From: Escherichia coli
GTDB lineage: Bacteria; Pseudomonadota; Gammaproteobacteria; Enterobacterales; Enterobacteriaceae
DNA length: 54,561 nt
NCBI RefSeq assembly: GCF_003334785.1
Contig: NZ_QOWV01000022.1
Reading direction: 5' to 3' (one strand)
Translations under genes and position numbers: made by a program
In this document: in pieces, positions 18,529 to 37,542 of the stretch
Layout of the letters: every line of letters begins with the position of its first letter
Numbering within the stretch: the stretch's first letter is position 1
Notes under the pieces: model-generated
What the model was told of the DNA's origin: nothing
The model's input: the letters and a program-made list of their open reading frames with translations, nothing else
The model's database searches: none

Positions 18529-18604
<76 letters not shown>

Positions 18605-18657
18605 GTTTAAAAGACATCGGCGTCAGCGGATGTCTGGCTGAAAGGCCTGAAGAATTT

Positions 18658-18731
18658 GGCGCGTTAACAAAGCGGTTATGTAGCGGATTGCAAATCCGTC
18701 TAGTCCGGTTCGACTCCGGAACGCGCCTCCA
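18658..18731 (+). tRNA. cysT: tRNA-Cys (GCA)
   Basis: GGCGCGTTAACAAAGCGGTTATGTAGCGGATTGCAAATCCGTCTAGTCCGGTTCGACTCCGGAACGCGCCTCCA. Confidence 0.9.
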
Positions 18732-18743
18732 CTTTCTTCCCGA

Positions 18744-18830
18744 GCCCGGATGGTGGAATCGGTAGACACAAGGGATTTAAAATCCCTCGGCGTTCGCGCT
18801 GTGTGGGTTCAAGTCCCACTCCGGGTACCA
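18744..18830 (+). tRNA. leuZ: tRNA-Leu (UAA), long variable arm
   Basis: GCCCGGATGGTGGAATCGGTAGACACAAGGGATTTAAAATCCC...GGGTTCAAGTCCCACTCCGGGTACCA; the T-stem differs from the K-12 sequence as I recall it by two compensatory changes. Confidence 0.85.
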
Positions 18831-19813: not shown

Positions 19814-19893
19814 TCTTCAATACTGCCCCGTAATAAAAACACCTTCAGATATATATTATCTCCATGATATCAATCAGATACATGAGGATAAAT

Positions 19894-21111
19894 ATGCAAA
19901 AATCCTTCCGATTCACCAATTCATCCATCAAAGCCCTTCCGGCAAACACAGATACCCGATCTACAGAGCTAGAGGTATCTGATACCGAAGTTATTGGCCT
20001 CAAATGTCTCTCAGGTCGAACGGGTAACAAACGTTTCCTCCTGCGCTACACATTCCACGGTACCAAAAAAAGTATCAGTATTGGCAGATTCCCTGAAATT
20101 GATGTGGGGACAGCTCGCCAGATAGCTCGCCGTCATAAGGAGGCGATTGCACTTGGAAATGACCCCAAGGCAGAGCGCGATAATTATCGTGCGATGCCAA
20201 CGCTTAGTGAGTTTTTTCACCAGACCTATGTTCCGTTCATCAAGCGCCATAAAAAGTCCTGGGATAAGGATGTTCAGCGTTTCACGCAATACATTGAACC
20301 TCGTCTGGGAAAGATACGTTACTGCGATCTCAGGGCCAGAGAGATACAACAGGTGCTGTTTGACATGCTGGAGGGGCGTATTCACGGGCAGCAATATGCG
20401 CCGTCTACCTGTAACAGAGCCCTTGCTATTCTGAAAACGATGGGGCGTTATGCGTTGCGACAGGATGTGCTGGAAAAGAATGAAGCCGATAAGATCCCTT
20501 TACTGAAAGAGAATAATCAGCGGACGCGCTTTTTTGATGCTGATGAGATCAGGCGCATTCTTGACGCTGCTACCCAATATCCCAACAAAGCTGCCGGGGG
20601 ATTGATAGCCATGTTGTTGTTAACCGGTACACGCAAATCAGAAATGCTTAATGTCAGGCATGAACATATCGACCGGGCCAATCGTACTCTGTTCATTCCT
20701 TATACAAAAAATGGTCGCAGTCGGACGGTATATCTAAGCGATGCCGCATTATCGATTATTGATGCTATCCCACGAGTTGGCAGTAATCCGTATCTGTTCG
20801 CCATTAAGGATAATGGAAAACCGATATCGGAACCCCGGTGGGCATATGAAAAAATACTGGCACAGTGCGGTATAGACAAGAATGAAGTCTGTTTTCACAC
20901 CACACGTCATTCTGTTGCCTCTTTACTGGTTTCGAGTGGTCAATTCAGCCTGTATGACGTTAAAGCACAACTGGCGCATGCGAGTATTCAAAGTACGGAG
21001 CGCTACGCGAAATTGACACCAGAGCGTATGCGTCAGACCGGGCAGGGCGTAACTGACCTTCTTTTGAACACCGTTACTGCCGGTAACAATGATGATTTTA
21101 GCACCCCTTGA
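19894..21111 (+). CDS. Tyrosine recombinase / integrase (P4-like, N-terminal Arm-type domain)
   Basis: Start at MQKSFRF preceded by GAGGA. C-terminal catalytic region has HTTRHSVAS (His-x-x-Arg) and a Tyr in ERYAKL. Same orientation as and just downstream of tRNA-Leu. Confidence 0.85.
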   Translation: MQKSFRFTNSSIKALPANTDTRSTELEVSDTEVIGLKCLSGRTGNKRFLLRYTFHGTKKSISIGRFPEIDVGTARQIARRHKEAIALGNDPKAERDNYRAMPTLSEFFHQTYVPFIKRHKKSWDKDVQRFTQYIEPRLGKIRYCDLRAREIQQVLFDMLEGRIHGQQYAPSTCNRALAILKTMGRYALRQDVLEKNEADKIPLLKENNQRTRFFDADEIRRILDAATQYPNKAAGGLIAMLLLTGTRKSEMLNVRHEHIDRANRTLFIPYTKNGRSRTVYLSDAALSIIDAIPRVGSNPYLFAIKDNGKPISEPRWAYEKILAQCGIDKNEVCFHTTRHSVASLLVSSGQFSLYDVKAQLAHASIQSTERYAKLTPERMRQTGQGVTDLLLNTVTAGNNDDFSTP

Positions 21112-22474: not shown

Positions 22475-22909
22475 ATGCAAACCCAATATGCCTTAAAACA
22501 GGCAGGATTAACTCTGCCTGTGACTAAAGAATTTCAGCAGCATATTACTACGCTTCTGGCAAATCAGGTTTTACAAAAAATAACTGAGGCAGTGGTTATT
22601 AATTTCCGTGATCCGGACTACAGTGCAGAATCCGGCGGATTTCATCCGGTTGAAATGCGGTTTATCCGTCAGGATAACGAATGGTATTTCGATTATGTCA
22701 CAGACTTTAGTTACATGGGACGAGTCTACCCGGAACTGGAAAAGGAAATGGACTTTTGTTGGTCAGGTCAATACGTCTTCCATTATCTGATTGGGGATAT
22801 TTCACTGGCAGCAGAGAGGAATGAACTCTGGTCCCTGTGGGAGCGTAATTTTATGGAGTATCTCTCTATGGGGATTTACCGGGTAACGGTAACTGTGGAA
22901 AGTTGTTGA
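22475..22909 (+). CDS. Hypothetical protein (144 aa)
   Basis: ORF with AAGGAAA ribosome-binding site; no motif assigned with confidence. Confidence 0.5.
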   Translation: MQTQYALKQAGLTLPVTKEFQQHITTLLANQVLQKITEAVVINFRDPDYSAESGGFHPVEMRFIRQDNEWYFDYVTDFSYMGRVYPELEKEMDFCWSGQYVFHYLIGDISLAAERNELWSLWERNFMEYLSMGIYRVTVTVESC

Positions 22910-23081
22910 CCCGTTATGAACAGGAAGAAAGCGGACGGCTTTGTAATCTACTGCATGTGGCGTGCATCACAGCATGGAGATGATGTCTCTTTTTCCTGGC
23001 TGTTCGCATAAACAAGTGCAGACACGGGGGATCTCAGATCCCTCGTGGTTTTTGCCCCCTATGGAGCATTCTCCTGTAGCA

Positions 23082-23125
23082 GGGTGATAACGGTTAATCC
23101 ATTACCCCAACGACAGTATTACACC
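23082..23125 (+). repeat. Copy 1 of a roughly 45-bp direct repeat (core ATTACCCCAACGRCAGTWTTACACC)
   Basis: Core matches 33888..33912 at 23 of 25 positions, and GGGTGATA lies at identical spacing upstream in both copies. Confidence 0.7.
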
Positions 23126-23210
23126 GGTAATAAATGTTTATGAATACAGTCAGTTATGTGGGTTTTGAGGTGGGCTATATCATCGTTGACGATAACTGAA
23201 GGTTTTACAG

Positions 23211-23438
23211 ATGTATAAAACTCGCGGTGAAAGGATAGCAGAAAGGCTGTGCTGGATATTACTTCAACTGTATACCGGTAATACGGTATCGGTTAATGAT
23301 ATATGTCAGCGTTTCGCGGTCAGTCGCCGAACCGGACAGCGTGATTTGTTGAGAGTTGAAACTGTAACGGAAACTATTTCACCTGGAAGGGTAAGGCTGG
23401 CAAGTTTGATAAGGGAACGAGTTAGACGAAATTTTTAA
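23211..23438 (+). CDS. Small HTH protein resembling the N-terminal DNA-binding domain of WYL-type regulators (possibly a truncated remnant)
   Basis: 75 aa; ERIAERLCWILLQLYTGNTVSVNDICQRFAVSRRTGQRDL parallels the N-terminus of the WYL regulator at 24400..25302; no WYL domain follows. Confidence 0.4.
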   Translation: MYKTRGERIAERLCWILLQLYTGNTVSVNDICQRFAVSRRTGQRDLLRVETVTETISPGRVRLASLIRERVRRNF

Positions 23439-23519
23439 TCGAATCCATATCAATTCTATAAAATATGAAACTTAACGGGAGTAAATATATACTCCCGTTA
23501 TAATGCAACCTTTTTTTAA

Positions 23520-24338
23520 CTACTCAAATGATATTAATTTAGGTACGACAGTGTTTTTATGATGTGTTGAATTTGCAAGATTAATAATATCATGAAATGA
23601 TTTCATGTCGTCGTCAGTGATTTCTACGGCTGGATCAGCTAAATCGGCACAGGTAACATTTAACCAGTGTGTTAATGAATCAATCCTGTTTGAAGTAATA
23701 TATTCAGTGTGACCAACATTCCACTTCCAGTTGATTATCCGAGCAGGTCTGAATCTCACCTCCCGAACCCCAATTGGTGTTACTGACTCAACGAGAGGGT
23801 ATATCGTGTTAAGTACTTTATCATGTTCACTGTAGATATTTAAATGCCCCATTTTTGAACCGTAAGCCATTTTCATTATGTTCTCTGTATAACTTGTTAT
23901 TGGGGTGGCTCCGGCCATAGAGATTGTTAAGAGAATATTATCATTTTTAATATAGGGTAATGTATTGTTTATTAATCGAGTCCCTAAAGAATGACCCATT
24001 ATGATCACATTACGCTTTTCTTTAACGTATATCTCGTTTATTACGTGTGCTAATTTTTCTCTGTTATTAACTGCTGCTTTCGTTGCATTATACCAGGCCT
24101 GACGCGCTTTAAATGGGATGGAGATTGATGACAATAAAGGAGATGTTCTCAGGGGGAAGAGAGTATATAACCCCCACTTGTTCGCTATGTCAGAACTTAA
24201 TATGGATAGTAGATTTGCCGATTCCCATTTATAGTATCTGACATCAAGGCCACACCCTGCTTTAATTCGGTTAAACCATGATATATCATTTTCGGTCAGA
24301 AACCCTGATACAACAAGAAGAACCGGGCATTTTTTCAT
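23520..24338 (-). CDS. Alpha/beta-hydrolase-like protein with GHSLG nucleophile-elbow motif (lipase/esterase-like)
   Basis: 272 aa, AT-rich; VIIMGHSLGTR fits the GxSxG serine-hydrolase motif; immediately downstream of and co-oriented with the WYL regulator. Confidence 0.55.
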   Translation of the reverse strand: MKKCPVLLVVSGFLTENDISWFNRIKAGCGLDVRYYKWESANLLSILSSDIANKWGLYTLFPLRTSPLLSSISIPFKARQAWYNATKAAVNNREKLAHVINEIYVKEKRNVIIMGHSLGTRLINNTLPYIKNDNILLTISMAGATPITSYTENIMKMAYGSKMGHLNIYSEHDKVLNTIYPLVESVTPIGVREVRFRPARIINWKWNVGHTEYITSNRIDSLTHWLNVTCADLADPAVEITDDDMKSFHDIINLANSTHHKNTVVPKLISFE

Positions 24339-24399
24339 GGTAACTCCATTTTTTAGCTTACAAAAATAGCACTTAATGAAAATTATATTATCCGTGTCA

Positions 24400-25302
24400 T
24401 TACGGGGCGTTACTTGGCTGGGTGTAACGTTTCAGTGCGGATTGTATATCTTCAGCAAGTTGTTGACGGATTGAGGCCGGTTGTATTACTTCGACATCCG
24501 GTATCCAGTATTTCATTAAAGGCATTATCTGATCTGTGTGTGTTACACGTGATATCACCAGTAAATCGCCAGACCGGGAAGTATGAATTATTTCCTGTCC
24601 TGGCAATAGATGACGGTGGGTAAACCACGGAGCAACATGTGCGGAAACTGAAATAAGAACTTCGATAAGGTCTTCGCTATACCAGATACCATCTGTCTTT
24701 TCTATTTTTTCATTAATTTCGGGGATTATCCTGAAAGAGATATTACTCATGCAAACGTCTTTGACAGATGAGATAACAAAGCTTTTTAATGTACTGTCAT
24801 GGGCGGCAGCGAGATACCACAATCCGTTGTCATTAACCAGTCTGTATGGCTCAACAGCCCGAAACTCTTTATCTTTGTAATTAAAATTTACTTTCTTCTG
24901 TGACAGGATGGCATAGGATAATACATTCAGAATTGACATGAATGATCCGCAGTTTTCGTATGGACGTTGTTTTATCAGAAACGGGTTGTTTTTCGTGTTA
25001 CCTAACAAAATACTCAGTAGTCTGTCATCCCAGCGAGGGAACAGCCCTTCAATGCCCAGGATGCGCGTGAAATGACGTAAATCAGCATTGCTGCGTTGAC
25101 CGAGAACACCGTCAGACAGGCGATAGCGACCATTTTGTCGAATCAGATTAAGATAGGACAGGCGCTGAGTAAGATCACGACGGATAGTTTTTTCGCAAAC
25201 GTTAAATTCCTCAGATAACTCCCGGACGGCTAGTGACTCACCATTGTTCAGGCGAGTTAATATCAATCCGAGTCGATATCCAAGTTTATCGTGCTTACCC
25301 AT
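24400..25302 (-). CDS. WYL-domain transcriptional regulator (HTH + WYL)
   Basis: 300 aa; N-terminal HTH ([21 protein letters not shown]) and a central literal WYL motif ([12 protein letters not shown]). Confidence 0.75.
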
Positions 25303-25681
25303 TCGTTTATCCGGTTAATGCCAGCGAAGAGGATATTTTCAGCAAAGTAACGGACAGGATGAGTCCACTTTTACTGTGACGGAGAAAAAAATTAACTCAT
25401 TAATTATCAATATATTAAAGCATTGCTGGAATCATCGAATAACATGTGGACTCATCCTGTCCATGTGTATTTTTACGTTCAGGGTGATAATTATTATCCT
25501 GACCTGTACATGACCTGTTTTTGCTGCATATTTGACCATGCACTTTTGCCATCAAGTCGGAGAGGCAGGGGGGAACGTAAGATCCGAAGGTTAGAGAGGT
25601 TATCAGCAATTACAATGATGATTAATATTTTCATAATATCGGAGAACATCATATTAGTTGAAATAACATAAAGGTGGTTCT

Positions 25682-26008
25682 ATGTATTTACATATCAGAA
25701 AGTATCAACTCGTAAATGCGAGATGGCGTGATGTCATTGATCTGACAGATTATGAAGAAACAATCAGTCAGGTTGTCGGTACATTATTTGGAAATGATTT
25801 TATTGAGGTCAGCGTTGAAACAAATTGTTTTATTCTGACAGTAAACAGTACAAGCAGTAAAATACCACACGGCATACTGGTGAATATGGGGAAAAGGCTG
25901 GCTGCTAATCTCCAGAGTATCACCTGTCATGCCATGCGGATCTATCATGTAAATGGCCATCCTGACGCGCGGCAGTTATTTCACTGTTTTGATGCCGATT
26001 GCCTGTGA
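25682..26008 (+). CDS. Hypothetical protein (108 aa)
   Basis: ORF with a strong AAGGTGG ribosome-binding site 5 nt upstream. Confidence 0.45.
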   Translation: MYLHIRKYQLVNARWRDVIDLTDYEETISQVVGTLFGNDFIEVSVETNCFILTVNSTSSKIPHGILVNMGKRLAANLQSITCHAMRIYHVNGHPDARQLFHCFDADCL

Positions 26009-26056
26009 TTAAGCCCCCAACTTCTGTTAAAGGAGTTGGGGGAGATTTAACGGTTA

Positions 26057-28657
26057 TCAGACTGGAAGACAGAATGTCGGATATTTACGGGCTATGATAT
26101 CCATCAGTGACTTCATTCGCGGTGTTACAGAACTAAATTTCATTTGGGGTATTTTTGCTCTTACCGCATTTTTTACATCAGTCACCGTTACTGAATAGCC
26201 TTCTGACGTCAGCCATTCAGCAACCTCTTTACAGGAATAACTTTTTTTATCTTTCAGCATAAGCCCCCATTGGCACTGAGTCAGCGCCCGGAGAAATAGT
26301 CTGACTAAAATATCATCACTACGTTTGCTTCCGACTTTTAGTTTCATATCAGAAAATACCGTCCGGCAATAGAGAAAATCACACCAGTCATCCCAGTCAG
26401 CCAGGGTCTTCAGTGTATGCGTTTGCCGCCAGTCGTCGAAAAGAGAGCGTTGCTGCAGAGCCTCTTCCATATTATCCCATGGGCGGGAAGACATCAGTAA
26501 ATGCCCTTCATTCATGGCGGGCTGTACGGGCTGGCGTTTGAAATCGAATTCCAGATTAAGACGGATATCCTGTTCCCGGGATACCAGATCGCTTTCCGAC
26601 AGCCACATCTCACGCGTTGATATCAACGTACTTCGGGATAACGTCTGACCGGGTAAACGATTAAGGTAAAGATCTACCATATAGTCGTTATAGTCACTGC
26701 GTGGAATATCGGCAGGAGGTTTGACGCCAGCCCTGGCATGAACAACAGGTTTTCCCTGAATAGCTCTATAGGTTAACTGCCCCCGGGTTTTCATGGCGAT
26801 AAGCTGGCTGACCTCATGCTTACATGTCAACATTGATGAACCCGGATCAACAATATCGCACAGCGACTGGAAGCGGGAAGACAGTGGACCGCTCATGTTT
26901 ATCTTGTTAAGTGGGCAATTTGTCAAAAAGCCATCGGTTGTGACGCTGACAACCGATGAATCAGAAGGCAAAGCATTCATGAGTTCCCCGGCAACGGCGC
27001 GGATAAATCCCGTCACATGCGCAGCAAAGAATGGCTGAGTAACCGATGATGGTGGGAGGGATCTGTTTAATCCACGGGCAGTATCAAAGGCGGTTTTGGC
27101 GCGAAGGCCCTGAGCAAGTTTGCCATAAAGCGAGTTGCCAATTTCTTTCCAGAATTTCTCCTCCAGAGAACCTTTAATATGGCGATTACGGTTCTCACGG
27201 ACCTGTTGAACAAAGGGAAGAAACACCGATGTTGATTCGCTGTTATGTGGGGAGGTGTCACAGATCCAGGGGACGATGATCCCATTATGGATCGTCATCT
27301 CTGCCCCGAGCGACAGAGCAAGTTCGATTTCAGGTGCCGTTGCCCATGATTCGCCACTTAATGGAAAGAATAACCCATATTGATCGGTCCGAACCGGCAG
27401 GCTGGGATAGGGAACTGATTCCGGGAACCGAAATGTGACAAGCGCAAATCCCATCACATGCCCACAGTAATCGTCCGGATTTTTACTGAGGCGGATGTTT
27501 CCGTAATCGGGTATGAGGATATCTAATAGCCCGGTGGTATACGCTCCAGCCAGATCGTAGTCATACCAGTGATCAGACGGTGTAACCCCCATCATAAAAC
27601 ACTCATTGCGTCCGCCGTGGTAACAGTTGATCGGGAACGTTTCAAACAGCTCTCTTGAAGGAACACTGGCGGGGTTTTTAATCGTCCGGAATGCCTGTTT
27701 CTCCGTGAGCCAGAGTTCACGGGTTTTAATGTGTGTCCCAAGGCAGACTTCGGGAGACATATTGTTTTCTTTAAGTGTTTTGGTGAACCGTGAAACTGCC
27801 ATCGCCCCGATGGTGGCGGGGACACGATCAATCATCAGCTCCCGGGCGCAAAAATTGCGAACCTGTAAAGCATAACGAACCGCAATCTCGGCATCCCGCA
27901 GAGCATAGGCTTCAAACCCTGCTCTGTCCCCCAGAAGATATTCACGCATATTGGTTATGGAATAAGGTGCAGGAATGGTGAGTTTGGGAAGACCCAGTAA
28001 TTCACCACATTCAGCCAGACCCATACCCCCGGGAGTGATAAGCAGTGTATCGATGAAAGCTACGTTACTGCAACGCGGAGGGGAAGTTCGTTTGTCAAAC
28101 ATTATCTGTTCAGTCTTTACGCGACGTTCCTGCTGTTCATCAAAATCGATACCGTAACGATTTTTGAAGCTGCTGACAGTACCGCGTATTCCTTTCAGAA
28201 GAATTTTGTAGTCTGACCAGAAATTGGCAAAGGAGGCGATATCCGCACGAATGAAATGCGCATATATATTAATAATACCGGGCCATTTTGTAATCACACC
28301 CGTTTCAAGAAGCGGTGTAATCGTTTGACAGAGAAAGTCCTTAAAAGACAGCCGGGATTTTTTCTGTGAGTCAGGTGGATAGATAATGTTCGATATACCT
28401 GTATTATCGGGTAAGACAACATAACTCTGATATGACAGAATATCATTCTGTCGTGTTTCAGGGTTGAAAACATATTCGGTATCAAAACCGATATGGAGCG
28501 TCAGGTCGTTTGAAATCACAGACACGTTTTTTGATGCAGGTGGCATCACAGGATAATCATCAAGCGTTTTAGGTCTTTTACGATTGAGCGCTGGCTCTGA
28601 AGTCACGGACTGATACCCCGAGGCGGCAGCGAGGATATCCTGCAAATTATGGCTCAT
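26057..28657 (-). CDS. Family B DNA polymerase, primer-independent type (piPolB-like), with 3'-5' exonuclease domain
   Basis: Start at MSHNLQD (GGAG upstream). Exo I-like FDTEYV, candidate motif A region YDYDLAGAYTTG, motif B KEIGNSLYGK (Kx3NSxYG) and motif-C-like VTTDGF. Assignment from motif recognition, not a search. Confidence 0.7.
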   Translation of the reverse strand: MSHNLQDILAAASGYQSVTSEPALNRKRPKTLDDYPVMPPASKNVSVISNDLTLHIGFDTEYVFNPETRQNDILSYQSYVVLPDNTGISNIIYPPDSQKKSRLSFKDFLCQTITPLLETGVITKWPGIINIYAHFIRADIASFANFWSDYKILLKGIRGTVSSFKNRYGIDFDEQQERRVKTEQIMFDKRTSPPRCSNVAFIDTLLITPGGMGLAECGELLGLPKLTIPAPYSITNMREYLLGDRAGFEAYALRDAEIAVRYALQVRNFCARELMIDRVPATIGAMAVSRFTKTLKENNMSPEVCLGTHIKTRELWLTEKQAFRTIKNPASVPSRELFETFPINCYHGGRNECFMMGVTPSDHWYDYDLAGAYTTGLLDILIPDYGNIRLSKNPDDYCGHVMGFALVTFRFPESVPYPSLPVRTDQYGLFFPLSGESWATAPEIELALSLGAEMTIHNGIIVPWICDTSPHNSESTSVFLPFVQQVRENRNRHIKGSLEEKFWKEIGNSLYGKLAQGLRAKTAFDTARGLNRSLPPSSVTQPFFAAHVTGFIRAVAGELMNALPSDSSVVSVTTDGFLTNCPLNKINMSGPLSSRFQSLCDIVDPGSSMLTCKHEVSQLIAMKTRGQLTYRAIQGKPVVHARAGVKPPADIPRSDYNDYMVDLYLNRLPGQTLSRSTLISTREMWLSESDLVSREQDIRLNLEFDFKRQPVQPAMNEGHLLMSSRPWDNMEEALQQRSLFDDWRQTHTLKTLADWDDWCDFLYCRTVFSDMKLKVGSKRSDDILVRLFLRALTQCQWGLMLKDKKSYSCKEVAEWLTSEGYSVTVTDVKNAVRAKIPQMKFSSVTPRMKSLMDIIARKYPTFCLPV

Positions 28658-28703
28658 AGTTAACTCCGAAAAAATGCCGGGAGCTGTGTCCCGGCATAAA
28701 GAA

Positions 28704-29342
28704 TCAAGATTTAATAACATTTACTACAGATTTGAAAATATCGGTTTTGCGTGATTCATCATCTGCATGGATAAATGAAACGAGGTTCCTGCCTGCTTTA
28801 ATCAGGATGCCACGTTGCGTCTTTTCCACAGATGGGGTGACGCGTGCAGATAACAGACAATTTTCATGTAACTGAAGAAACTTTTTTGAGGCGTAGCCGC
28901 CATGCAGTCGGGCTTTAATTTCATTATACATATCATCAAGAGAACCGGGTTCTCCTGATTCACTCAATACCGGATAGCCCTTCTTATCAAAAAGGCTGAG
29001 GATAGATTTACCATCATGTTCGAACAAGGTAACACCGTAAATGTATTTCATTCGAAAGGTGAGGGCGTCGGTGGTGTAGATCTCCTCCTGACAACTGAAA
29101 TTTTTGAGACGCCTGGCTAATTCATTAAAAACAGCACGAGCAGTAGCCGTGTCCTGCAGGGTGTAGGTATAAAGTACGAAGCCATCTGTGCCGATGAGCT
29201 TTACTAAGTTGTCCATAATCGTGATAGCGAGAACTAATGCAAAGGACAGATATTTTTCATCGTTGTCTACAGCTGTGCTTGCTGATTCGGGAATAATGTT
29301 CAGTGCATTATTAGCGTTATTTTCCGTGTTCTTAGTAACCAT
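28704..29342 (-). CDS. Hypothetical protein (212 aa) in an operon with the excisionase-like gene and the polymerase
   Basis: ORF between the Xis-like gene and the polymerase, same strand, short gaps. Confidence 0.5.
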   Translation of the reverse strand: MVTKNTENNANNALNIIPESASTAVDNDEKYLSFALVLAITIMDNLVKLIGTDGFVLYTYTLQDTATARAVFNELARRLKNFSCQEEIYTTDALTFRMKYIYGVTLFEHDGKSILSLFDKKGYPVLSESGEPGSLDDMYNEIKARLHGGYASKKFLQLHENCLLSARVTPSVEKTQRGILIKAGRNLVSFIHADDESRKTDIFKSVVNVIKS

Positions 29343-29532
29343 TTATATCACCTTTAAGTTTGTTTTGACGATGTGCATTTTCCCACTCAACAATATCGTC
29401 AAGAGAGAATCGTATAGCCCGCCCAATTCTGATGAAGGGCGGGAGTTTTCCGGGGTTGCGCGATATATCTGACGCAACCGTGGATGCAGAAAGATTAAAT
29501 CTTTCTGCGAACTGCTTAATGGTTAAATACAT
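29332..29532 (-). CDS. Excisionase / AlpA-like HTH DNA-binding protein
   Basis: 66 aa; LTIKQFAERFNLSASTV..IRIGRAIRFSLDDIVEWE is typical of the Xis/AlpA/MerR-like HTH family. Confidence 0.6.
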   Translation of the reverse strand: MYLTIKQFAERFNLSASTVASDISRNPGKLPPFIRIGRAIRFSLDDIVEWENAHRQNKLKGDINGY

Positions 29533-29674
29533 AAACCTCCGGTTTCAGAGAATAAGAAGCCACGCGGATTTAATATCAATCCACATTCTGTGATGACTTA
29601 ATGCAGGGCCCTGCAGAAGCATGCAATGACAATACCGTCCTTAAACGAGTGTTGCATCAATCACGAATCACAGA

Positions 29675-30811
29675 TCATAGGTTCATTTTTGTGTCATAAC
29701 TTTCTATGACCTGAGAAACCACTGCGTGTGATGTCGCTGCATTGTGAAAAGCGTAGCGACGGGTCGCCGTGAGTGAATGGTGATTTAGCAGATGGGAAGC
29801 GATTGCAATATCCCCGGTCGCCTGTAGTATCCGGGTGGCAAAGGTACGGCGCAGGTCATGCATCCGCAGGTTATCAATGTTGGCATCCCGACAAATACGG
29901 GCAAAGGTTGCACGCGGATATGCCAGAGGGCGGGCATTGTCGGTTAGTTGTGGAAAAATGTAAGTTTTGCTGAGCATCAGGTCCTGCTGGCACTGGACAA
30001 CTGCAATGGCTGGAGGTGCAAGTGGGCAGGTGAAAGGGTGTCCGGACTTTGTATCAGGCAGTATGAGTTGATGCATATCCGGGTGCCAGTACTCCCATTT
30101 CAGGGTACATACCTCACCAATACGCATCCCCGTATAAAGAGCAAGCAATATAGAATCAGCTGCCGGTGTTTGCAGCGCTGTTGCCGCGTCAATAAAGCGC
30201 GGGATTTCTGTCGCTGACAGCGTGCGATAGCGAATGTTATTTTCTTTCAGATAGCGGACATGTGACATCGGGGAATGTGTGATCCATCCAGCACGTACTG
30301 CCAGAGAGCATATTTTGGACAATATTGCGAGGATTCGGTTTACTGTTGACGGACGTAATTTTTCCCGTAAGCCAGCAGCATATTGTTCCAGTTCTCCTGC
30401 CGTGATGTCGCGAAGTTGCCGCTTGCCCCAGAACGGGCGAACGTAGAGGTTGAGTTTTGACAACTCTGACTGAGGACTCTTTTTATACAACTGCAAATCC
30501 GGTAGCCACAGGTCATTGATGGCCTGTTCCACAGTGAATCGACGGGACTGAACCGCAAGACGATTTTTATCAGCAAGCAGTTTCATCACATGCTGACGGG
30601 CATCCTCAACGCAGAGCTGAGGGAACTGACCCAGGGTTTCATATATACGCTGATTGTTTATAGTGGCACGAAAGGCCAGCGTGATCCGATTGGGATACAC
30701 CAGAGCACGCAGGTTTTGGCAGTGAATATCACGGTATTCCTGACAACCCGTGAGGGGATGTGGAAGTTGGTGAATTGATTTGTTGCTGAAACGCAGATCC
30801 AGAATAGGCAT
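29675..30811 (-). CDS. Tyrosine recombinase (XerC/phage-integrase family), second recombinase of the element
   Basis: 378 aa; catalytic-domain motifs RIGEVCTLKW, HDLRRTFATR, and a Tyr in TRRYAFH. Confidence 0.8.
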   Translation of the reverse strand: MPILDLRFSNKSIHQLPHPLTGCQEYRDIHCQNLRALVYPNRITLAFRATINNQRIYETLGQFPQLCVEDARQHVMKLLADKNRLAVQSRRFTVEQAINDLWLPDLQLYKKSPQSELSKLNLYVRPFWGKRQLRDITAGELEQYAAGLREKLRPSTVNRILAILSKICSLAVRAGWITHSPMSHVRYLKENNIRYRTLSATEIPRFIDAATALQTPAADSILLALYTGMRIGEVCTLKWEYWHPDMHQLILPDTKSGHPFTCPLAPPAIAVVQCQQDLMLSKTYIFPQLTDNARPLAYPRATFARICRDANIDNLRMHDLRRTFATRILQATGDIAIASHLLNHHSLTATRRYAFHNAATSHAVVSQVIESYDTKMNL

Positions 30812-30954
30812 CGTATTTCTCCTGTAAATGACACTGGAAAAATACGATGTGAGGTTATAGTCTGCCAGTTACAGCTTTCACAGTTCATCAGGTGAAAAAA
30901 CGCAGACTCGGATATAATGGCAACACAATTCCATGTCGCCATTATATTAAGAAA

Positions 30955-32085
30955 CTACAGTTTCATGATCTTGTTCGCTATTTTTTCGAAGTAAACCTCA
31001 TTCTTAAGAAGAGTGATATTGTTTGTTTGAACACCCAGACCACTGGAGGTTGACTGGAAGTTGAGTGAACCACTTATCACTGTGGACTTTCCTGATAAAA
31101 AGGAAATCAACTCCTTGGAAGATGGTGCCCACTCAGGGTTTAAGAGTAATGCAATATAGATATATGTCTTACGAAGCAATTGTTCGATATCTTTTTTATG
31201 CCCTGTAGTGTTTTGCTTACCTTTAATGCAAATAGATTTGATTATGAACTCATCAGGGCTGGTTAAAGGCGTTTTAAACTCACTCAGTGATTCATCGTTA
31301 CGAATGACTTCATAAGGCAGCATAGATAAAATGATCAATGCAATCATTTTAGGATGATAAAGGTAGTTATCACGAATGATTTTTCCTGCCTTCATTGTAT
31401 TGAGCGTTGTTTGAATAAATACAAAGTGATATTCAGAGCAAAAGTAACAAAACACAAGCCAGGATAGGTCAATGGCTGGAATGTTAATATCCTTAGGTAG
31501 TTTGTTTAGCCAGTATTCAGACTTCAAAAAGGTCCTGATTTCAACAGTATATTCATGCATTTTTGCGCTGAAATCAAGCATTGCTACTTGACCTGATTGT
31601 TCCGTAACTGTGTGGTCTATAAATGTTAGTGTATTGCACATTTTATCCAGCGTGTTTTGAAAACAAGAAAGGAGTTCGGCATTATTATTACCATTAACCG
31701 CAGATGAAAGTTCAGTTTTAATAAATGCATCCAGTAGCATACAGATTTCTTTCGGAATTACATTTTTACGGGATTGCTGTGAATAGAAATGTACTGCCAG
31801 TAAATTAAAGGCAGTGCACTCCTTTTTTAACCATTGTTCGAGCACTGGGACGTGCTGAAAAAAATTGATATGCTTAGCAGTAGATGCTGATGGAGATAGT
31901 ACATGAAGAATATCTACAGCAGGCTTCATTTGCAATATTTGATCGGATTCGGTAGTCGTCATTAGTTCCAGTAATTGCTGTTCAGAAAATAGTTTAGACA
32001 GGTGATCAATGTCTTTTTGGTATTGATTAAGTTTTGTTAAATTCCCCGGTATACGGGTTACATTGTTTTTCATTTTCTCGAACAT
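30955..32085 (-). CDS. Hypothetical protein (376 aa), AT-rich ORFan
   Basis: Long uninterrupted ORF in roughly 30-35% GC DNA; no motif recognised. Confidence 0.5.
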   Translation of the reverse strand: MFEKMKNNVTRIPGNLTKLNQYQKDIDHLSKLFSEQQLLELMTTTESDQILQMKPAVDILHVLSPSASTAKHINFFQHVPVLEQWLKKECTAFNLLAVHFYSQQSRKNVIPKEICMLLDAFIKTELSSAVNGNNNAELLSCFQNTLDKMCNTLTFIDHTVTEQSGQVAMLDFSAKMHEYTVEIRTFLKSEYWLNKLPKDINIPAIDLSWLVFCYFCSEYHFVFIQTTLNTMKAGKIIRDNYLYHPKMIALIILSMLPYEVIRNDESLSEFKTPLTSPDEFIIKSICIKGKQNTTGHKKDIEQLLRKTYIYIALLLNPEWAPSSKELISFLSGKSTVISGSLNFQSTSSGLGVQTNNITLLKNEVYFEKIANKIMKL

Positions 32086-32846
32086 AATTTTATCCTCGTT
32101 TAAATTATTACACTGATTTAAAAAGTAGCATGTCGTGTTAGCGAGGTAATCCTAAAACGTGAATGGCAGCAGGGGCAAGCTTGAATCTGCGTAAGGATAT
32201 GGCTTAAATTTAATGGTGTAATCAGTGAGTTAGAGGCTTATAGCCATTTAAATACAATAAGTTATGATGATATGTGGCGGGTGTAAATCGGTTAGTTTTT
32301 ATGTTTAAAATATGAGCGTTGTGAGATTTGAGATATGATGGTTTTTAAATTACATACAAGTTACCCCTGATGATCAGTATTAATACCAGAATGATACATG
32401 CGAGCAGCACCCAATCCTGTACTATTGATGATGACTATACAAGGCTGAAACTTTTAGTCGTATGTTGCCAGGAGGATTAATGTCCACAAGGCCCAGATAG
32501 AATGATTTCTCAGATATTAAAGTTGAAACTTATTAACTATGTGAGAGGCTGATATTTATTCAGTCTCTCATTTGTTTTTATCGTTTTAAAGTTAAAAGGA
32601 AATAAATAATGCCTTCCGCCGATGAATCAATGTGCTGATTTCCCTCAAATCAGCCTCAATACTACCAACATCACCAAAGACTTCACCTCTAATCTCACTT
32701 CGATTTTTCATGAAATTGGTGCTTAATAAGCTTTCTTTTTTTAATGCCATTAATTTTGGTTTTATATCGTTATAGAAATGCTTACGGCTTACCCTGATGC
32801 TATGAATCGAGTAGTAAACTGTTTTATACATCAAAAATATAAGTAA

Positions 32847-33824
32847 CTAGCCGAGAAGATATTCTTTTTCAATGTATTTATATTGAGAGGATTTTTCGCG
32901 TTTCGCCAGGTAGAAAACATGAGGTGCGATGATGGTGGGGATAAAATCCAGTGCTGGAGAGGTTTTGGTTTTTTCTGTTTCTCTTCCGGATTGAAGATGT
33001 TGAAGTACAGAGTATGCAATGCTTAAAATTATGGCGTTACTTATATTATTAATTGCAGTTGGGTAAATATGCAGATTGCTTATCAATTCTGAAAGGCAAA
33101 GTAAAACACCAGTGATGTTGGGTTTTCTGCCAGAGATTGTGGTGCTGTTGAAAATGTGACGATTCTTACGACTTATATTGACAAGTTTATGAGTGCAGAA
33201 CTCTATATGTTCGACGATTTTATCTTGACTATTTTTAATGTATTTTGAAATGTTAGTGATCCGGCCATTCAACGTTAGTTCATCAAGCAATATATCATTT
33301 TTAATATTGCGAATTTCATCGCAATGTTCACATTGAGAAACTATCTCATGTAATACATAACTCGAAGTATTGCGGGGTGACGTTGATATGTAATCTAAAA
33401 TAGAAGGCTCGATTTTGATTTTTTGTTTGTATTTTTTAATGCACTGTTTGATTGTTTTTTGTAGAGTATTTGAGATGTGTTTTTTATATTCTTTTAGAAA
33501 ATCTTGCTCTAAAAAGAGTGAGGAGAAGATCAACTGCTGGCGAGATAATTTAATCTCAGGCTTGATCAATTTAATCCGAAAAACTCTTCCCTCCAACTCA
33601 TAGCTGAACATGGAAGATAAGTCATAGTGGGGTGATAAATGTTCGAGTAACGACATTCGTGTATTCATTAGCCGCTTGAATTTATGGTCAGCATACATAA
33701 GTGTTTTTTTTATTTGCTCATCGTAAAGTGGGCCGATAACGCAATTAGCAATACTCATACTATCCGGAGACCTCCAGTCAACAGGGGAATCACATTGACG
33801 GCCACCATTACAATCAAAGGGCAT
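32847..33824 (-). CDS. Hypothetical protein (about 300-326 aa), AT-rich ORFan; start uncertain
   Basis: Long ORF; first ATG at 33824, alternative ATG at 33758 preceded by GGAGG. Confidence 0.45.
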   Translation of the reverse strand: MPFDCNGGRQCDSPVDWRSPDSMSIANCVIGPLYDEQIKKTLMYADHKFKRLMNTRMSLLEHLSPHYDLSSMFSYELEGRVFRIKLIKPEIKLSRQQLIFSSLFLEQDFLKEYKKHISNTLQKTIKQCIKKYKQKIKIEPSILDYISTSPRNTSSYVLHEIVSQCEHCDEIRNIKNDILLDELTLNGRITNISKYIKNSQDKIVEHIEFCTHKLVNISRKNRHIFNSTTISGRKPNITGVLLCLSELISNLHIYPTAINNISNAIILSIAYSVLQHLQSGRETEKTKTSPALDFIPTIIAPHVFYLAKREKSSQYKYIEKEYLLG

Positions 33825-33868
33825 CAACGTTGCCGATTATGGATCATGTCAGCTTCACACACCAGAAT

Positions 33869-33912
33869 GGGTGATATATGGATCATCATTACCCCAACGG
33901 CAGTTTTACACC
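33869..33912 (+). repeat. Copy 2 of the roughly 45-bp direct repeat, about 220 bp upstream of hsdM
   Basis: See copy 1 at 23082..23125. Confidence 0.7.
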
Positions 33913-34130
33913 ATGGCTAATATGGATGCTATCTTACTAAGATAATTGGTTTTTAGCGAGTGACGAGCCAGGTTGTGTCAGTCTGTCTCATGTCGATATT
34001 ACGGGGATGATGCAAACCTGAATGCTGCGATATTGGCGTGTCAGGGGAGGCATCTTACGGTATCATTTACCGCAATTTTTAAGATGCAAAGCCCTGCATC
34101 GCTAGCTTTTTCTTTAGACCAGGATGATTC

Positions 34131-35654
34131 ATGAACGACAAAATCAGTCAGGACACGATCAACAAAGCCCTGTGGGCCGCGTGTGATACGTTCCGTGGCA
34201 CCATCAGTGCTGATACCTATAAAGACTTTATCCTTACCATGCTGTTCCTCAAGTACATTTCAGATGTCTGGCAGGATCACTATGACGAATACAAAGAACA
34301 GTATGGCGATGCGCCGGAACTGATTGAAGCGATGATGGCCAACGAGCGTTTTGTACTGCCAAAAAGTGCCAGCTTTTATGCGCTGTACGAACGCCGCCAT
34401 GAGCCGGGTAACGGTGAGCGTATCGATCAGGCTCTGCATGCAATCGAAGAAGCCAACGGAACCAAACTGAAAGATGCCGGGAAAAGCGTGTTCCAGGATA
34501 TTTCGTTTAACACTGACCGCTTGGGTGAAGAAAAACAGAAGAACACCATCCTGCGTCAGTTGCTGGAAGACTTCGCCGGTGAAGATCTCAACCTGAAGCC
34601 AAGCCGTGTAGGTACGCTGGACGTTATCGGTAATGCCTACGAATATCTGATCAAAAACTTTGCCGCCAGCGGTGGGCAGAAAGCCGGGGAGTTCTATACC
34701 CCGCCGGAAGTTTCGGACCTGATTGCAGAACTGCTCGATCCGCAACCGGGTGATACCATCTGCGATCCAGCCTGTGGTTCCGGTTCATTATTGATGAAGT
34801 GTGGGCGTAAAATTGTCTCCGGGCATGATAGTCGTAACTATGCATTGTTCGGTCAGGAAGCGATCGGTTCTACGTGGTCGCTGGCGAAAATGAATATGTT
34901 CCTGCACGGGGAAGACAACCATAAAATCGAGTGGGGCGATACCATTCGTAACCCGAAGCTGCTCGATAAAAATGGCGACCTGATGCTGTTTGATATCGTG
35001 ACCGCTAACCCACCGTTCAGCCTCGATAAGTGGGGCCATGACGAGGCCGAGAACGATAAGTTTGGCCGTTTTCGTCGCGGTGTACCGCCGAAGACTAAAG
35101 GAGATTACGCTTTTATCTCGCATATGATCGAAACCCTGAAACCGGGAACTGGCCGTATGGGCGTAGTTGTGCCACACGGTGTGCTTTTCCGTGGCTCCAG
35201 CGAAGGTAAAATTCGCCAGAAACTGATCGACGAAAATTTGCTGGATGCGGTAATTGGTCTGCCGGAAAAACTGTTCTACGGTACGGGGATTCCGGCTGCG
35301 ATTCTGATTTTCAAAAAGCAGAAAGTTGATGACAAGGTGCTGTTTATCGATGCCAGCCGTGAATTCAAGGCAGGTAAAAACCAGAACCAGCTCAGCGCAG
35401 AAAACATCGAGAAAATCGTCAAGACCTACCGTGATGGCGATAACGTCGAGAAATACGCCTATCTTGCCAGCCTGAAAGAGATTCAGGACAACGATTACAA
35501 CCTTAATATTCCACGTTATGTTGATACTTTCGAGGAAGAAGACGAGATTGATTTACTGGTCGTGCGTGCTGAACGTGAGCAACTGAAGGTGGAACTGGCG
35601 AATCTGGAAACGGAGATGGCGGGTTATCTGAAGGAGTTGGGTTATGGTGCCTAA
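34131..35654 (+). CDS. hsdM: Type I restriction-modification system methyltransferase subunit
   Basis: 507 aa; AdoMet-binding DPACGSGSLL and catalytic NPPF (TANPPFS) of N6-adenine methyltransferases; followed by hsdS. Confidence 0.9.
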   Translation: MNDKISQDTINKALWAACDTFRGTISADTYKDFILTMLFLKYISDVWQDHYDEYKEQYGDAPELIEAMMANERFVLPKSASFYALYERRHEPGNGERIDQALHAIEEANGTKLKDAGKSVFQDISFNTDRLGEEKQKNTILRQLLEDFAGEDLNLKPSRVGTLDVIGNAYEYLIKNFAASGGQKAGEFYTPPEVSDLIAELLDPQPGDTICDPACGSGSLLMKCGRKIVSGHDSRNYALFGQEAIGSTWSLAKMNMFLHGEDNHKIEWGDTIRNPKLLDKNGDLMLFDIVTANPPFSLDKWGHDEAENDKFGRFRRGVPPKTKGDYAFISHMIETLKPGTGRMGVVVPHGVLFRGSSEGKIRQKLIDENLLDAVIGLPEKLFYGTGIPAAILIFKKQKVDDKVLFIDASREFKAGKNQNQLSAENIEKIVKTYRDGDNVEKYAYLASLKEIQDNDYNLNIPRYVDTFEEEDEIDLLVVRAEREQLKVELANLETEMAGYLKELGYGA

Positions 35655-36837: not shown

Positions 36838-37520
36838 TGAAACTGACCAAAAACGCCCCGCTGACTGAGCGTGAAATCGACTGGCTGGAAGAGGTGCTGA
36901 TGAAGTATGGCAATGATGACTCGGTGCTCTGCTTCTCTGAACTGGATGGCTTTCTGACGGCGATTGTCTCCGGCCCGAATATGATTTCCCCGAATATCTG
37001 GCTCAGTGCCCTTTGGGGGCGGGGTGATTACCACCCTCGCTGGACCACTGAAAAAGAGATGACGCGTTTTGTGGGGCTGTGTTTTCAGCATATGAACGAT
37101 ATCGCTGGCTGCCTGTATGAGGCCCCTGAACAGTTTGAACCGATTTTCAATGGACGTGAGGTGAAGGGGAAGACATATACCATCGTCGAAGAGTGGTGTT
37201 TCGGGTATATGAAAGGCCGGTCTCTGGATGACTGGTCAGCCTTGCCAGAGGCCTTACGTCCCTCGCTGGAGGCGATAGCCCTTCATGGTATCGAAAAGAA
37301 CTTCCCAGTGGTTGAGAAAATGTCACCTGTTCAATTTGAACAGAGTATTACTCTCATTCAGCCTGCGGCACTGGCGCTTTACCAGCACTGGTTGTCGGTG
37401 AGAATGTCAGAGGCATCATCCCGGCCTGTTCCCGTGAAGGGGGCAGAAAAACTGCCCGGTCGTAATGACCCGTGTCAGTGTGGCAGTGGTAAAAAATTTA
37501 AAAAGTGCTGCCTGCACTGA
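36837..37520 (+). CDS. YecA-like protein (UPF0149 domain with C-terminal SEC-C metal-binding motif) embedded in the hsd operon
   Basis: 227 aa; C-terminal GRNDPCQCGSGKKFKKCC is a SEC-C motif; overall resemblance to E. coli YecA as recalled; start shares the hsdS stop (ATGA overlap). Confidence 0.65.
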   Translation: MKLTKNAPLTEREIDWLEEVLMKYGNDDSVLCFSELDGFLTAIVSGPNMISPNIWLSALWGRGDYHPRWTTEKEMTRFVGLCFQHMNDIAGCLYEAPEQFEPIFNGREVKGKTYTIVEEWCFGYMKGRSLDDWSALPEALRPSLEAIALHGIEKNFPVVEKMSPVQFEQSITLIQPAALALYQHWLSVRMSEASSRPVPVKGAEKLPGRNDPCQCGSGKKFKKCCLH

Positions 37521-37542
37521 CAAAGCGGAAGGGGGCTTGCTC

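Follow-up and report, generated by a model that had tools for sequence, protein, structure and literature searches.

Paired intergenic motif of enterobacterial pipolins: a strongly conserved non-coding site with a predicted operator or promoter-proximal role

The pipolin described here carries two near-identical non-coding sequences, which raises the question of whether they serve transcription, recombination, or some other transaction of the element. Pipolins are mobile defence islands of Escherichia coli and its relatives. The window, a 54,561-nt stretch of E. coli chromosomal DNA, holds one of them at a tRNA-Leu gene, leuZ (Table 1). An earlier note, made from the sequence alone, had placed a 25-nt motif just upstream of two cargo modules and had proposed either shared operators or promoters, or recombination sites at which cassettes are swapped.

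The coordinates and sequences reported in that note were reproduced exactly. The motif reads ATTACCCCAACGACAGTATTACACC at copy 1 (23101-23125) and ATTACCCCAACGGCAGTTTTACACC at copy 2 (33888-33912), with two mismatches, and the GGGTGATA box that had been noted upstream starts 19 nt before both copies. The gaps to the downstream genes likewise hold, at 85 nt for the HTH open reading frame (ATG at 23211) and 218 nt for hsdM (ATG at 34131). Each unit is laid out as a GTGATA box, a spacer of ~12 nt, and a 24-nt core with the consensus TTACCCCAACG[A/G]CAGT[A/T]TTACACC. At copy 1, the GGGTGATA box (23082-23089) is followed by a 12-nt spacer and the 24-nt core TTACCCCAACGACAGTATTACACC (23102-23125); at copy 2, the same box (33869-33876) precedes the core TTACCCCAACGGCAGTTTTACACC (33889-33912). 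An AT-rich tract of 30-50 nt follows each core.

Table 1. Coordinates of the motif copies, the neighbouring genes, and associated signals in the window.
Feature	Position	Strand	Remarks
leuZ, tRNA-Leu(UAA)	18744..18830	+	pipolin integration site; holds one copy of the known ~130-nt att repeat
YR1, IntSXT-type tyrosine recombinase	19864..21111	+	adjoins the tRNA
Intrinsic terminator of the IntSXT-DUF2787 operon	23023..23047	+	35 nt upstream of the copy-1 box; kept in all lineages
Copy 1 of the 45-nt unit	23082..23125	+	intergenic, DUF2787 gene / 75-aa HTH gene; position and strand unchanged in all related pipolins
HTH75, HTH_11/DeoR-like 75-aa protein	23211..23438	+	first gene 3' of copy 1
HTH-WYL regulator	24400..25302	-	between the two motif copies
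Probable degenerate site 3: CAGGGTGATAA box, then ACCTGTAC	25480..25517	+	WYL-orf108 intergenic region
piPolB, primer-independent family B DNA polymerase	26057..28720	-	pipolin hallmark gene; between the two motif copies
Xis, excisionase-like HTH_17 gene	29332..29532	within 29332..30811 (-)	between the two motif copies
YR2, IntP2-type tyrosine recombinase	29675..30811	within 29332..30811 (-)	between the two motif copies
Copy 2 of the 45-nt unit	33869..33912	+	divergent intergenic region, orf326 (-) / hsdM (+)
hsdM proximal promoter, sigma-70-like, GTGTCA-17-TATCAT	34038..34066	+	~125 nt downstream of copy 2
hsdM	34131..35654	+	first gene of the type I R-M cargo operon; 3' of copy 2

Self-BLAST of the whole 54.5-kb window returned only one significant internal repeat that is not palindromic, the 45-nt pair (84% identity, E = 2e-4), and none of 100 dinucleotide shuffles contained any match to the motif. 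The outer heptamers of the core, TTACCCC and TTACACC, are invariant. They are direct repeats spaced by 17 nt, a distance that does not correspond to an integral number of helical turns. The unit has a single dyad, GGGTGAT / ATTACCC, and the spacers inside it show no relation between the two copies (AACGGTTAATCC versus ATATGGATCATC). The motif is not described in the pipolin literature examined, and a full-text sequence search of the literature returned no relevant match.

The core is near-invariant in the pipolins of 461 out of 5,426 complete E. coli genomes and of eight other named enterobacterial species, with identity at 21-24 of its 24 positions. The motif is therefore neither missing from homologous elements nor randomly placed, the outcomes that the earlier note had regarded as fatal to its significance; in related islands it lies at the same two module borders. 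This conservation spans one lineage in which piPolB is 70% identical and another in which it is 48% identical. Between those lineages, the adjacent gene has reached saturation at its synonymous positions (dS > 1 or undefined), and the flanking intergenic DNA shows ~52% identity or is unrelated, so that retention of the core far exceeds the neutral expectation. The variable core positions (11, 12, 14, and 17) all lie in the spacer between the invariant heptamers, as would be produced by a binding site with two contacts. The GGGTGATA box is kept at copy 1 in all lineages; at copy 2 its presence is limited to some of the left-flank variants. The sites lie strictly between genes, their strand is always that of the downstream gene, and their spacing is fixed in all loci compared (84-86 nt ahead of HTH75, 218-220 nt ahead of hsdM). 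In each of at least four independent rearrangements, the pipolin core was lost and copy 2 stayed joined to hsdM; copy 2 is also kept on plasmid R-M modules captured by IS1. The motif is thus confirmed as a real, non-random, strongly conserved non-coding site, present twice per pipolin.

That most elements hold only two copies, with a third site visibly decayed in some lineages, might suggest a functionless relic of an old duplication or insertion. Such a relic would not be expected to stay 21-24/24 identical beside saturated synonymous sites, or to persist between unrelated flanks, and the conservation pattern effectively refutes this explanation.

The known terminal att repeats of pipolins (Redrejo-Rodriguez 2017; Flament-Simon 2020; ExplorePipolin) resemble the motif in being direct repeats of the same element that show high conservation across E. 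coli pipolins and serve to define module borders. The att repeat differs in being ~130 nt long, comprising the 3' half of tRNA-Leu and ~75 nt downstream, and in flanking the whole element; in strain MDK6L1 its copies lie at positions 159-286 and 34312-34441 of locus L019, with 97% identity. The motif, in contrast, is 24-45 nt long, has no sequence in common with att, and sits inside the element, with IntSXT and DUF2787 preceding copy 1 and the entire cargo following copy 2. Identity with the known att was ruled out on these grounds. In the window, the tRNA-Leu region has no repeat partner, the second ~130-nt att copy lying past the window end.

The paired motif is best read, with a probability of roughly one half, as a shared operator or promoter-proximal site in which TTTACA serves as the -35 element and which a pipolin or host protein binds. 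Of the two possibilities raised in the earlier note, this is the one that the intergenic position, fixed strand and distance, conservation beyond neutrality, and -35-like TTTACA fit best; that a protein binds, that the site has a promoter role, and which protein is the binder are all predictions. The two copies would be paralogous cis-acting protein-binding sites of the enterobacterial pipolin, each heading a rightward transcription unit, namely, HTH75 with its variable neighbours and the hsdM cargo operon. TTTACA, in the 3' part of the core, could act as a -35 element, and the invariant upstream part may be the operator for one DNA-binding protein that would place both units under joint control.

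TTTACA matches five of six -35 positions and is the only promoter-like feature common to all copies. It is followed by a -10-like hexamer 16 nt downstream at copy 1 (GATATT, GAAATT, or GACATT) and 19 nt downstream at copy 2 (TATCTT, TATCAT, or TATCCT). Promoter scores are modest: copy 1 of the window has ATTACA and a poor -10, and the 19-nt spacer of copy 2 is long. A consensus scan found no strong sigma-70 promoter overlapping either copy in the window. Because hsdM has its own proximal promoter, kept in lineage B as GTGTCC-17-TATCAT, it does not require copy 2 to supply a core promoter. Two observations that count against an operator are the heptamer spacing of 17 nt, which is off helical phase, and the occurrence of the motif with the R-M module, free of any pipolin regulator, on ~345 Klebsiella plasmids.

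The leading candidate for the motif-binding protein is HTH75, which is predicted to act both at its own promoter and at copy 2; alternatively, the binder may be a conserved host factor. HTH75 matches Pfam HTH_11 (E = 7e-4) and falls in PHROG 13105, which it shares with the N-terminus of the WYL regulator. It adjoins copy 1 in every motif-bearing pipolin examined. A tblastn search of distant pipolins that lack the motif found no HTH75 homologue, and the distant pipolins in which tblastn detected no homologue have no clear motif. The gene had been called an HTH remnant; with dN/dS of 0.04-0.24 between lineages, it is instead a conserved 75-aa gene under purifying selection. The cargo module said to follow copy 1 is only partly cargo, in that the genes between the HTH and WYL genes differ by lineage. 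The WYL regulator has a candidate operator of its own with a different sequence, an inverted pair of GGACAGGATGAGTCC.

The closest parallels to an operator role are the operators of BrxR/CapW-type HTH-WYL repressors and the C-boxes of R-M systems. These are likewise short, conserved intergenic sites that head defence or R-M operons, and they are bound by a small, often autoregulatory HTH protein encoded beside one site, a role for which the pipolin has a candidate in HTH75. They differ in being palindromic and in overlapping a clear promoter, whereas the heptamers of the motif are direct and any promoter at it is weak or atypical; the palindromic pair in this element appears to be a separate operator belonging to the WYL regulator. 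C proteins are not known from type I R-M systems.

A third site bears on all functional readings. The degenerate remnant in the window, whose CAGGGTGATAA box has an 11-nt match to copy 1, corresponds to an intact site 3 in the divergent pipolin L026. Both lie in the next intergenic region, from the WYL gene to piPolB, and in the window the remnant is upstream of the rightward orf108. In L026, site 3 has no rightward open reading frame downstream and points into the 3' end of piPolB, 61-84 nt beyond its stop codon, which counts against an operator. Site 3 is decayed in the lineage of the window and absent in lineage B. L026 keeps the copy-1 site together with HTH75 at 77% identity, the WYL N-terminus at 82%, and YR1 at 89%, with YR2 at only 33% and Xis at 39%, a pattern that was counted in favour of the operator reading. 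Its sites 2 and 3 have diverged together (39 nt, 77% identity) and bracket the most divergent block, piPolB-Xis-YR2. This joint drift also counts against an operator, since an att-type model would predict it as well.

In such a model, both copies would be att-like sites for YR2 and Xis, or a cassette boundary, and would delimit an excisable or exchangeable 10.8-kb cassette running from HTH75 to orf326 (with WYL, piPolB, Xis, and YR2) nested in the tRNA-Leu island. The assignment of YR2 and Xis draws in part on PMC11551731, in which IntP2 is termed "secondary"; it has no assigned role in pipolins. The direct repeats bracket exactly the YR2, Xis, and piPolB block, which in L026 is strongly diverged between co-diverged sites. 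Unrelated left flanks abut the core at copy 2, and a fall in similarity between lineages A and B, from 81-97% to 52%, coincides exactly with the right edge of copy 1. Like P2/lambda-type core att sites, the motif is a near-identical direct repeat of 24-25 nt on either side of an IntP2-type integrase and excisionase block; unlike them, it lacks inverted integrase-binding arms around a shared 6-8-bp overlap, its inner flanks lack arm-type repeats, and no recombination products were found in the populations searched. Because the spacers enclosed by the only dyad are wholly different between copies and the invariant heptamers are direct rather than inverted, the unit does not have the standard core-type geometry, in which both partners share an overlap region. 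The cores in the window, moreover, differ at two positions, and the copy-1 site of L026 stays canonical even though its YR2 is only 33% identical.

Genome searches lend no direct support to the cassette swapping proposed in the earlier note. A chimeric empty-site query matched 491 of 5,426 E. coli genomes, yet none was a clean empty site; the one near match, strain I4, still has both copies and represents an illegitimate deletion. Neither circle nor tandem junctions were found in the same 5,426 genomes, and JGI metagenome contigs, a collection scanned with no positive control, gave 0 matches to either exact junction pattern. Deletions of the pipolin core proceed via IS elements or by illegitimate joining that uses microhomology, and most mosaic breakpoints fall off the motif, inside DUF2787, at ~34035, or at the hsdM ribosome-binding site. 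Even where the motif is missing, in distant pipolins, the linkage of piPolB to IntSXT and DUF2787 persists (also PMC11551731), so the inner block is not an independent element. An att-like function is consequently considered unlikely.

It is a little less probable that the sites bind a protein for another DNA transaction, such as origin- or iteron-like loading for piPolB-dependent replication, mobilisation in trans through an oriT mimic, or an architectural or partition-type function. The AT-rich tracts would suit such a role, as would the placement of the sites around piPolB and on the opposite strand. Site 3 of L026 lies just past the piPolB stop codon, and in the distant metagenomic pipolin L035 a weak relative of the core (18/24) occupies the same place and strand, although such distant matches are statistically weak, with estimated E values of ~0.1-0.2 for L035 and > 0.5 for L029 and L027. 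With two sites there is no iteron array, and the decay of site 3 in the lineage of the window and its absence in lineage B also speak against this role. piPolB reportedly initiates in vitro without sequence-specific origins, which was counted against an origin. The unit bears a loose resemblance to an oriT in that an inverted repeat precedes a conserved single-strand-like stretch. An oriT or nic region was nonetheless rejected: apart from the captured R-M module, no sequence similar to the motif was found in 72,556 plasmids, and the element has no relaxase.

It is very improbable that the motif acts as RNA, for instance in a leader or an sRNA, or belongs to a small coding sequence. Both copies are on the sense strand upstream of genes and could fall within 5' leaders if transcription started further upstream. 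Against this, no Rfam family matched at E up to 1, predicted folds are no more stable than those of shuffled sequences (z of -0.4 to +0.8), and copy 1 sits just past an intrinsic terminator. A short open reading frame that spans copy 2 lacks a start codon at copy 1, and both polymorphic positions alter the encoded amino acid.

Beside the operator or promoter-proximal role favoured here, a more speculative and rather doubtful proposal is that the paired sites, ancestrally three in number, serve as handling sites through which the piPolB-Xis-IntP2 block becomes a replaceable cassette, either in rare two-site exchange by IntP2 and Xis or as ends or origins of a segment copied by piPolB. If true, this would account for piPolB-Xis-IntP2 diverging more than any other part of otherwise similar pipolins, and the second integrase, so far unexplained, would gain a function.

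The pipolin of the window, a mobile element defined by its primer-independent family B DNA polymerase (piPolB), follows a stretch of E. coli chromosome (fliD...uvrC-pgsA) and three tRNA genes. Published enterobacterial pipolins have a conserved core by the tRNA and variable defence cargo farther out (PMC11551731), and the gene order of the window agrees with this layout. A 45-nt unit, composed of a GTGATA-type box, a spacer of ~12 nt, and a 24-nt core, occurs once before the gene for a 75-aa HTH protein (HTH75; copy 1) and once before hsdM (copy 2). The unit separates the IntSXT/DUF2787 block from the piPolB/IntP2 block, and the latter from the defence cargo; its position is the exact core–cargo boundary of the published "bimodular" model.

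The earlier note described a 25-mer pair with the box GGGTGATA beginning 19 nt 5′ of both copies. This description is borne out by the coordinates, by dinucleotide shuffles of the window (0 of 100 with any motif match), and by self-BLAST of the whole 54.5-kb window, in which the 45-nt pair (84% identity) is the sole significant internal repeat besides two palindromes. Alignment of the flanks of the two copies found no similarity outside the 45 nt. The pair is real and not trivial. The box sequence itself occurs six times in the window, always on the + strand, versus 1.2 expected; six was reached in 1 of 100 shuffles.

Features of the pipolin in the window, of the divergent pipolin L026, and of other compared loci
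Feature	Position	Strand	Content or context
tRNA-Gly, tRNA-Cys, tRNA-Leu(UAA)	18529-18830
hyp246			left of copy 1
YR1, IntSXT-type integrase	19864-21111
Three small ORFs
DUF2787 gene	22475-22909		3′ half at 22600-22900
Terminator
Copy 1, 25-mer	23101-23125		ATTACCCCAACGACAGTATTACACC
HTH75 gene	23211-23438
DUF726 hydrolase, HTH-WYL regulator genes
Inverted pair of GGACAGGATGAGTCC	25352-25366; 25448-25462	+; -	upstream of the WYL gene
Third-site-like sequence	25480-25517	+	CAGGGTGATAA...ACCTGTAC
orf108
piPolB	26057-28720	-
orf212, excisionase-like HTH_17 gene (Xis)
YR2, IntP2-type integrase	29675-30811
orf376, orf80, orf326			last genes before copy 2
YR2-to-copy 2 stretch	30900-33885
Copy 2, 25-mer	33888-33912		ATTACCCCAACGGCAGTTTTACACC
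R-M module with copy 2	33836-43433		plasmid-borne elsewhere
Promoter-like site of hsdM	34038-34066
Two hairpins in predicted hsdM leader	34058-34100
hsdM, hsdS, YecA-like gene, orf620, hsdR, M48 peptidase			right of copy 2, in order
Direct repeat in hsdS	36221-36275; 36767-36821
More defence cargo			DUF262 pair, Hhe
IS66-family element, inside	54472-54561		window end
Further boxes GGGTGATA	25480; 33630; 34748; 46584	+
L026 site 1			between DUF2787 and HTH gene; canonical: GGGTGAT box, then TTACCCCAACGGCCGTTTTACACC
L026 site 3			WYL-piPolB intergenic region; GGGGTGATAAC box, then ACACCCCTAATGGTTTACTACACC
L026 site 2			upstream of hsdM; ATCCCCCTAATGGGTTATTACACT
L018 (strain I4), locus of core loss	9320-9345
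L035 core-like sequence	5939-5962	-	just 3′ of piPolB
L029 core-like sequences	272-295; 4841-4864	-	by piPolB

Of 5,426 complete E. coli genomes, 461 carry at least one motif copy. The copy-1 query is matched over its full length in 318 of these, and in 144 the best match to that query is only 80-90% identical, as is typical of copy 2. When 100,044 species, each represented by a single genome, were scanned for the exact pattern, 14 loci emerged, all pipolin-derived, with hosts in Enterobacter, Citrobacter amalonaticus, C. koseri, another Citrobacter sp., Atlantibacter, Buttiauxella noackiae, B. warmboldiae, Intestinirhabdus alba, and Franconibacter helveticus; a 2.7-kb motif contig labelled Nanosynbacter is probably contamination. 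The search of related islands that had been proposed earlier thus found the motif at the same two places: in every scan locus the core lies on the strand of its downstream gene, with the HTH gene following after 84-86 nt or hsdM after 218-220 nt.

The core, TTACCCCAACG[A/G]CAGT[A/T]TTACACC, is unchanged in lineage B (L003, L004/5, and L015), whose piPolB and WYL regulator are each 70% and YR2 76% identical. In alignments it forms an island of identity. The flanks of copy 1 are orthologous but diverged, the left flank of copy 2 exists in three variants, and its right flank is recognisable but only ~63% identical over 120 nt. The polymorphic core positions (11, 12, 14, and 17) all fall between the invariant heptamers TTACCCC and TTACACC. 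Synonymous sites of the HTH gene are saturated between lineages (dS 1.2-1.7 for L026 versus lineage B, undefined for the window versus the others), and because 21-24 of 24 core positions are identical against this background, the core is under strong purifying selection. Between lineages in which the genes next to it are saturated at synonymous sites, the DUF2787 gene has 93-97% nucleotide identity over its 3′ half and ~73% over its 5′ half, which suggests a recent gene-conversion patch or nucleotide-level constraint.

Published pipolin borders are defined by direct repeats resembling att sites, and one repeat overlaps tRNA-Leu (PMC7385651, PMC9710591). In the complete genome of strain MDK6L1, att spans ~130 nt, comprising the 3′ half of tRNA-Leu and ~75 nt downstream, with one copy adjoining the tRNA and another adjoining yecA 34 kb off; the second copy belonging to the window lies beyond position 54561. 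With att identified and unrelated in sequence, the motif is neither the known att nor tRNA-derived. The terminator hairpin resembles the anticodon arm of tRNA-Leu over 26 nt, but without significance (E 9.3). The pipolin papers examined do not mention any repeat inside the element, and searching full texts for the motif sequence returned nothing relevant. To our knowledge, the terminal att is the sole non-coding feature described to date in pipolins, a recently recognised class of defence islands. The motif is a second cis element, not described before and strongly conserved in the pipolins of enterobacteria, with two copies and, ancestrally, three. It would be one more conserved protein-binding site of a mobile element, which is a familiar class, and not a system of a new kind.

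The third site is found in L026 (GCA_028831165.1), which has a piPolB 48-50% identical, the same gene order, and three related sites in one orientation. The window carries what looks like a deletion remnant of this site, beginning with an 11-mer (CAGGGTGATAA) identical to the copy-1 box. Between CAGGGTGATAA and ACCTGTAC lies a perfect palindrome, GATAAT-T-ATTATC, similar to a Fur box. More distant piPolB relatives were taken from a representative search, as a word-index search returned near-identical proteins only. In five of them (L027, L030, L031, L034, and L035; piPolB 40-45% identical), a clear motif is absent and no significant intergenic direct repeats were found. Weak core-like sequences occur in two metagenomic pipolins with piPolB only 40-42% identical: an 18/24 match in L035, statistically not secure, and sequences of marginal statistics in L029. 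The two that were scored match at 17-18 of 24 positions, one is preceded by GGGTGAT, and the strand is opposite to piPolB. On these matches, the site family might be older than the enterobacterial clade.

Recombination between copy 1 and copy 2 is predicted to leave the junctions ...GGTTAATCC-core-ATGGCTAATATGG... and ...GGATCATC-core-GGTAATAAATG.... An empty-site query (copy-1 left flank, core, and copy-2 right flank) was fully covered by one E. coli genome, strain I4. However, I4 still has both copies, separated by 259 nt. Its deletion fused the HTH gene with the region upstream of orf326 at a microhomology, and the genome is not a clean empty site. The query for the circle or tandem junction found 0 E. 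coli genomes at ≥80% coverage. Exact junction patterns gave 0 matches in JGI metagenome contigs, a result that carries less weight because a positive-control scan was not possible. The pipolin core (piPolB and one or both integrases) has been lost repeatedly while the defence cargo remained at leuZ (I4, L002, L009, and L022), by routes other than the motif: IS30/IS3 in L002 (the lineage behind at least part of the 144 copy-2-only genomes), IS1 in L022, a group II intron and IS3 region in L020, and, in Atlantibacter (L009), illegitimate joining 33 nt to the left of copy 2.

Mosaic breakpoints are scattered (C. koseri, C. amalonaticus, lineage B, L013, and L026). In lineage B and L013, identity falls from 81-97% to 52% exactly at the right edge of copy 1. 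In C. koseri and C. amalonaticus, identity switches from 73% to 93% inside DUF2787. To the right of copy 2, similarity resumes at ~34035 in lineage B; in L026 it does not return before the ribosome-binding site of hsdM. The unit has no inverted binding arms enclosing a common overlap; its sole dyad, GGGTGAT / ATTACCC, encloses spacers completely different between the copies. Arm-type repeats in the inner flanks were rejected, the only shared hexamer (TCAACG) not being conserved in lineage B by eye. L026 site 1 is canonical although YR2 and Xis are only 33% and 39% identical (HTH75 77%, WYL N-terminus 82%, YR1 89%). An att-type role is thus unlikely, keeping some probability because L026 sites 2 and 3 are closer to each other than either is to site 1 and lie on either side of the most divergent block. 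Between YR2 and copy 2 is a hypervariable stretch, with orf376 alleles only 36-43% identical, orf80 and orf326 optional, and an unrelated 513-aa ORF in L026; its ORFs have no match in NCBIfam or PHROGs. In E. coli strain 1409 (L003), an annotated ISCro1 is inserted directly after copy 1, and the sequence beside it is 100% identical to the last 90 nt of the window.

Of the two alternatives in the earlier note, recombination sites and shared operators or promoters, the latter is favoured. From position and sequence, the motif may be a shared operator or promoter element, with a probability of about 0.5. Its sites are strictly intergenic, oriented with the rightward genes, and precede the rightward transcription units of the region (the HTH gene, orf108 in the case of the third site or its remnant, and hsdM). 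When all variants were scanned with a promoter PWM, one feature recurred, the core TTTACA, a 5/6 match to the −35 element, with a −10-like hexamer 16 nt downstream at copy 1 (lineage B and L026) and 19 nt downstream at copy 2. Copy 1 of the window has ATTACA, which is weaker as a −35 element, and a simple consensus scan found no promoter at either copy in the window. It is hypothesized that the unit is a promoter-proximal operator in which the invariant heptamers and the box would be protein contacts beside or overlapping a weak −35 element. In addition, hsdM has a conserved proximal promoter-like site of its own. A sigma-32-like reading (GTGATA-15-CCCCAACG) fails on a copy-2 variant without the box, and comparison with the consensus sequences of CRP, IHF, LexA, Fur, DnaA, TyrR, PhoB, and the LacI family gave no convincing match.

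Some other DNA-transaction site is a slightly fainter prospect than an att-type one; an oriT mimic was rejected, as plasmid similarity was not found. A relic or an RNA element is the least probable reading. RNA-level roles are unlikely because Rfam has no match for the motif, its folds do not surpass those of shuffled sequence, and a terminator precedes copy 1; on these results and the reading of frames, an RNA element and a small ORF were both rejected. Within the predicted leader of hsdM, two terminator-like hairpins with T-runs occupy the promoter-to-ribosome-binding-site stretch and are conserved across lineages; they could be an attenuator.

For the operator reading, HTH75 is the best candidate binder. 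It is present alongside the motif in every pipolin examined, and tblastn found no match for it in distant motif-less pipolins. The earlier note took its gene for an HTH remnant; it is instead a conserved HTH_11/DeoR-like gene with a dN/dS of 0.04-0.24 among non-window lineages (dS being saturated versus the window), and RefSeq leaves it unannotated in several genomes. HTH75 and the N-terminal domain of the WYL regulator are relatives, both assigned to one PHROG. The WYL regulator is less likely as the binder because its own upstream region has a different conserved inverted pair, two perfect copies of GGACAGGATGAGTCC 81 nt apart, with variants at the equivalent place in lineage B (L003) and L026; this is probably the regulator's own operator pair. 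A conserved host protein is an alternative.

Copy 2 has stayed with hsdM in at least four independent rearrangements and in an IS1-flanked plasmid module, a pattern compatible with, but no proof of, some part in expressing the cargo. This type I R-M module (hsdM, hsdS, the YecA-like gene, hsdR, and the M48 peptidase), copy 2 included, is found on ~345 plasmids, mostly conjugative Klebsiella plasmids (L023, L024, and L025). The examples fetched are F-type or IncFIB, the left ends of the plasmid matches lie 27-33 nt before the box, and in L023, examined in detail, the module is bounded by IS1. Within hsdS, a 55-nt direct repeat (76% identity) is presumably the conserved region that type I specificity subunits usually carry in duplicate. 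DNA of pipolin origin can be recognised sensitively by the core sequence, even in islands that have lost the pipolin core and in the plasmid-borne R-M module. The motif also lets the second integrase be checked directly for a substrate, and the 45-nt unit offers a concrete probe for the protein controlling expression of the pipolin core and its cargo.
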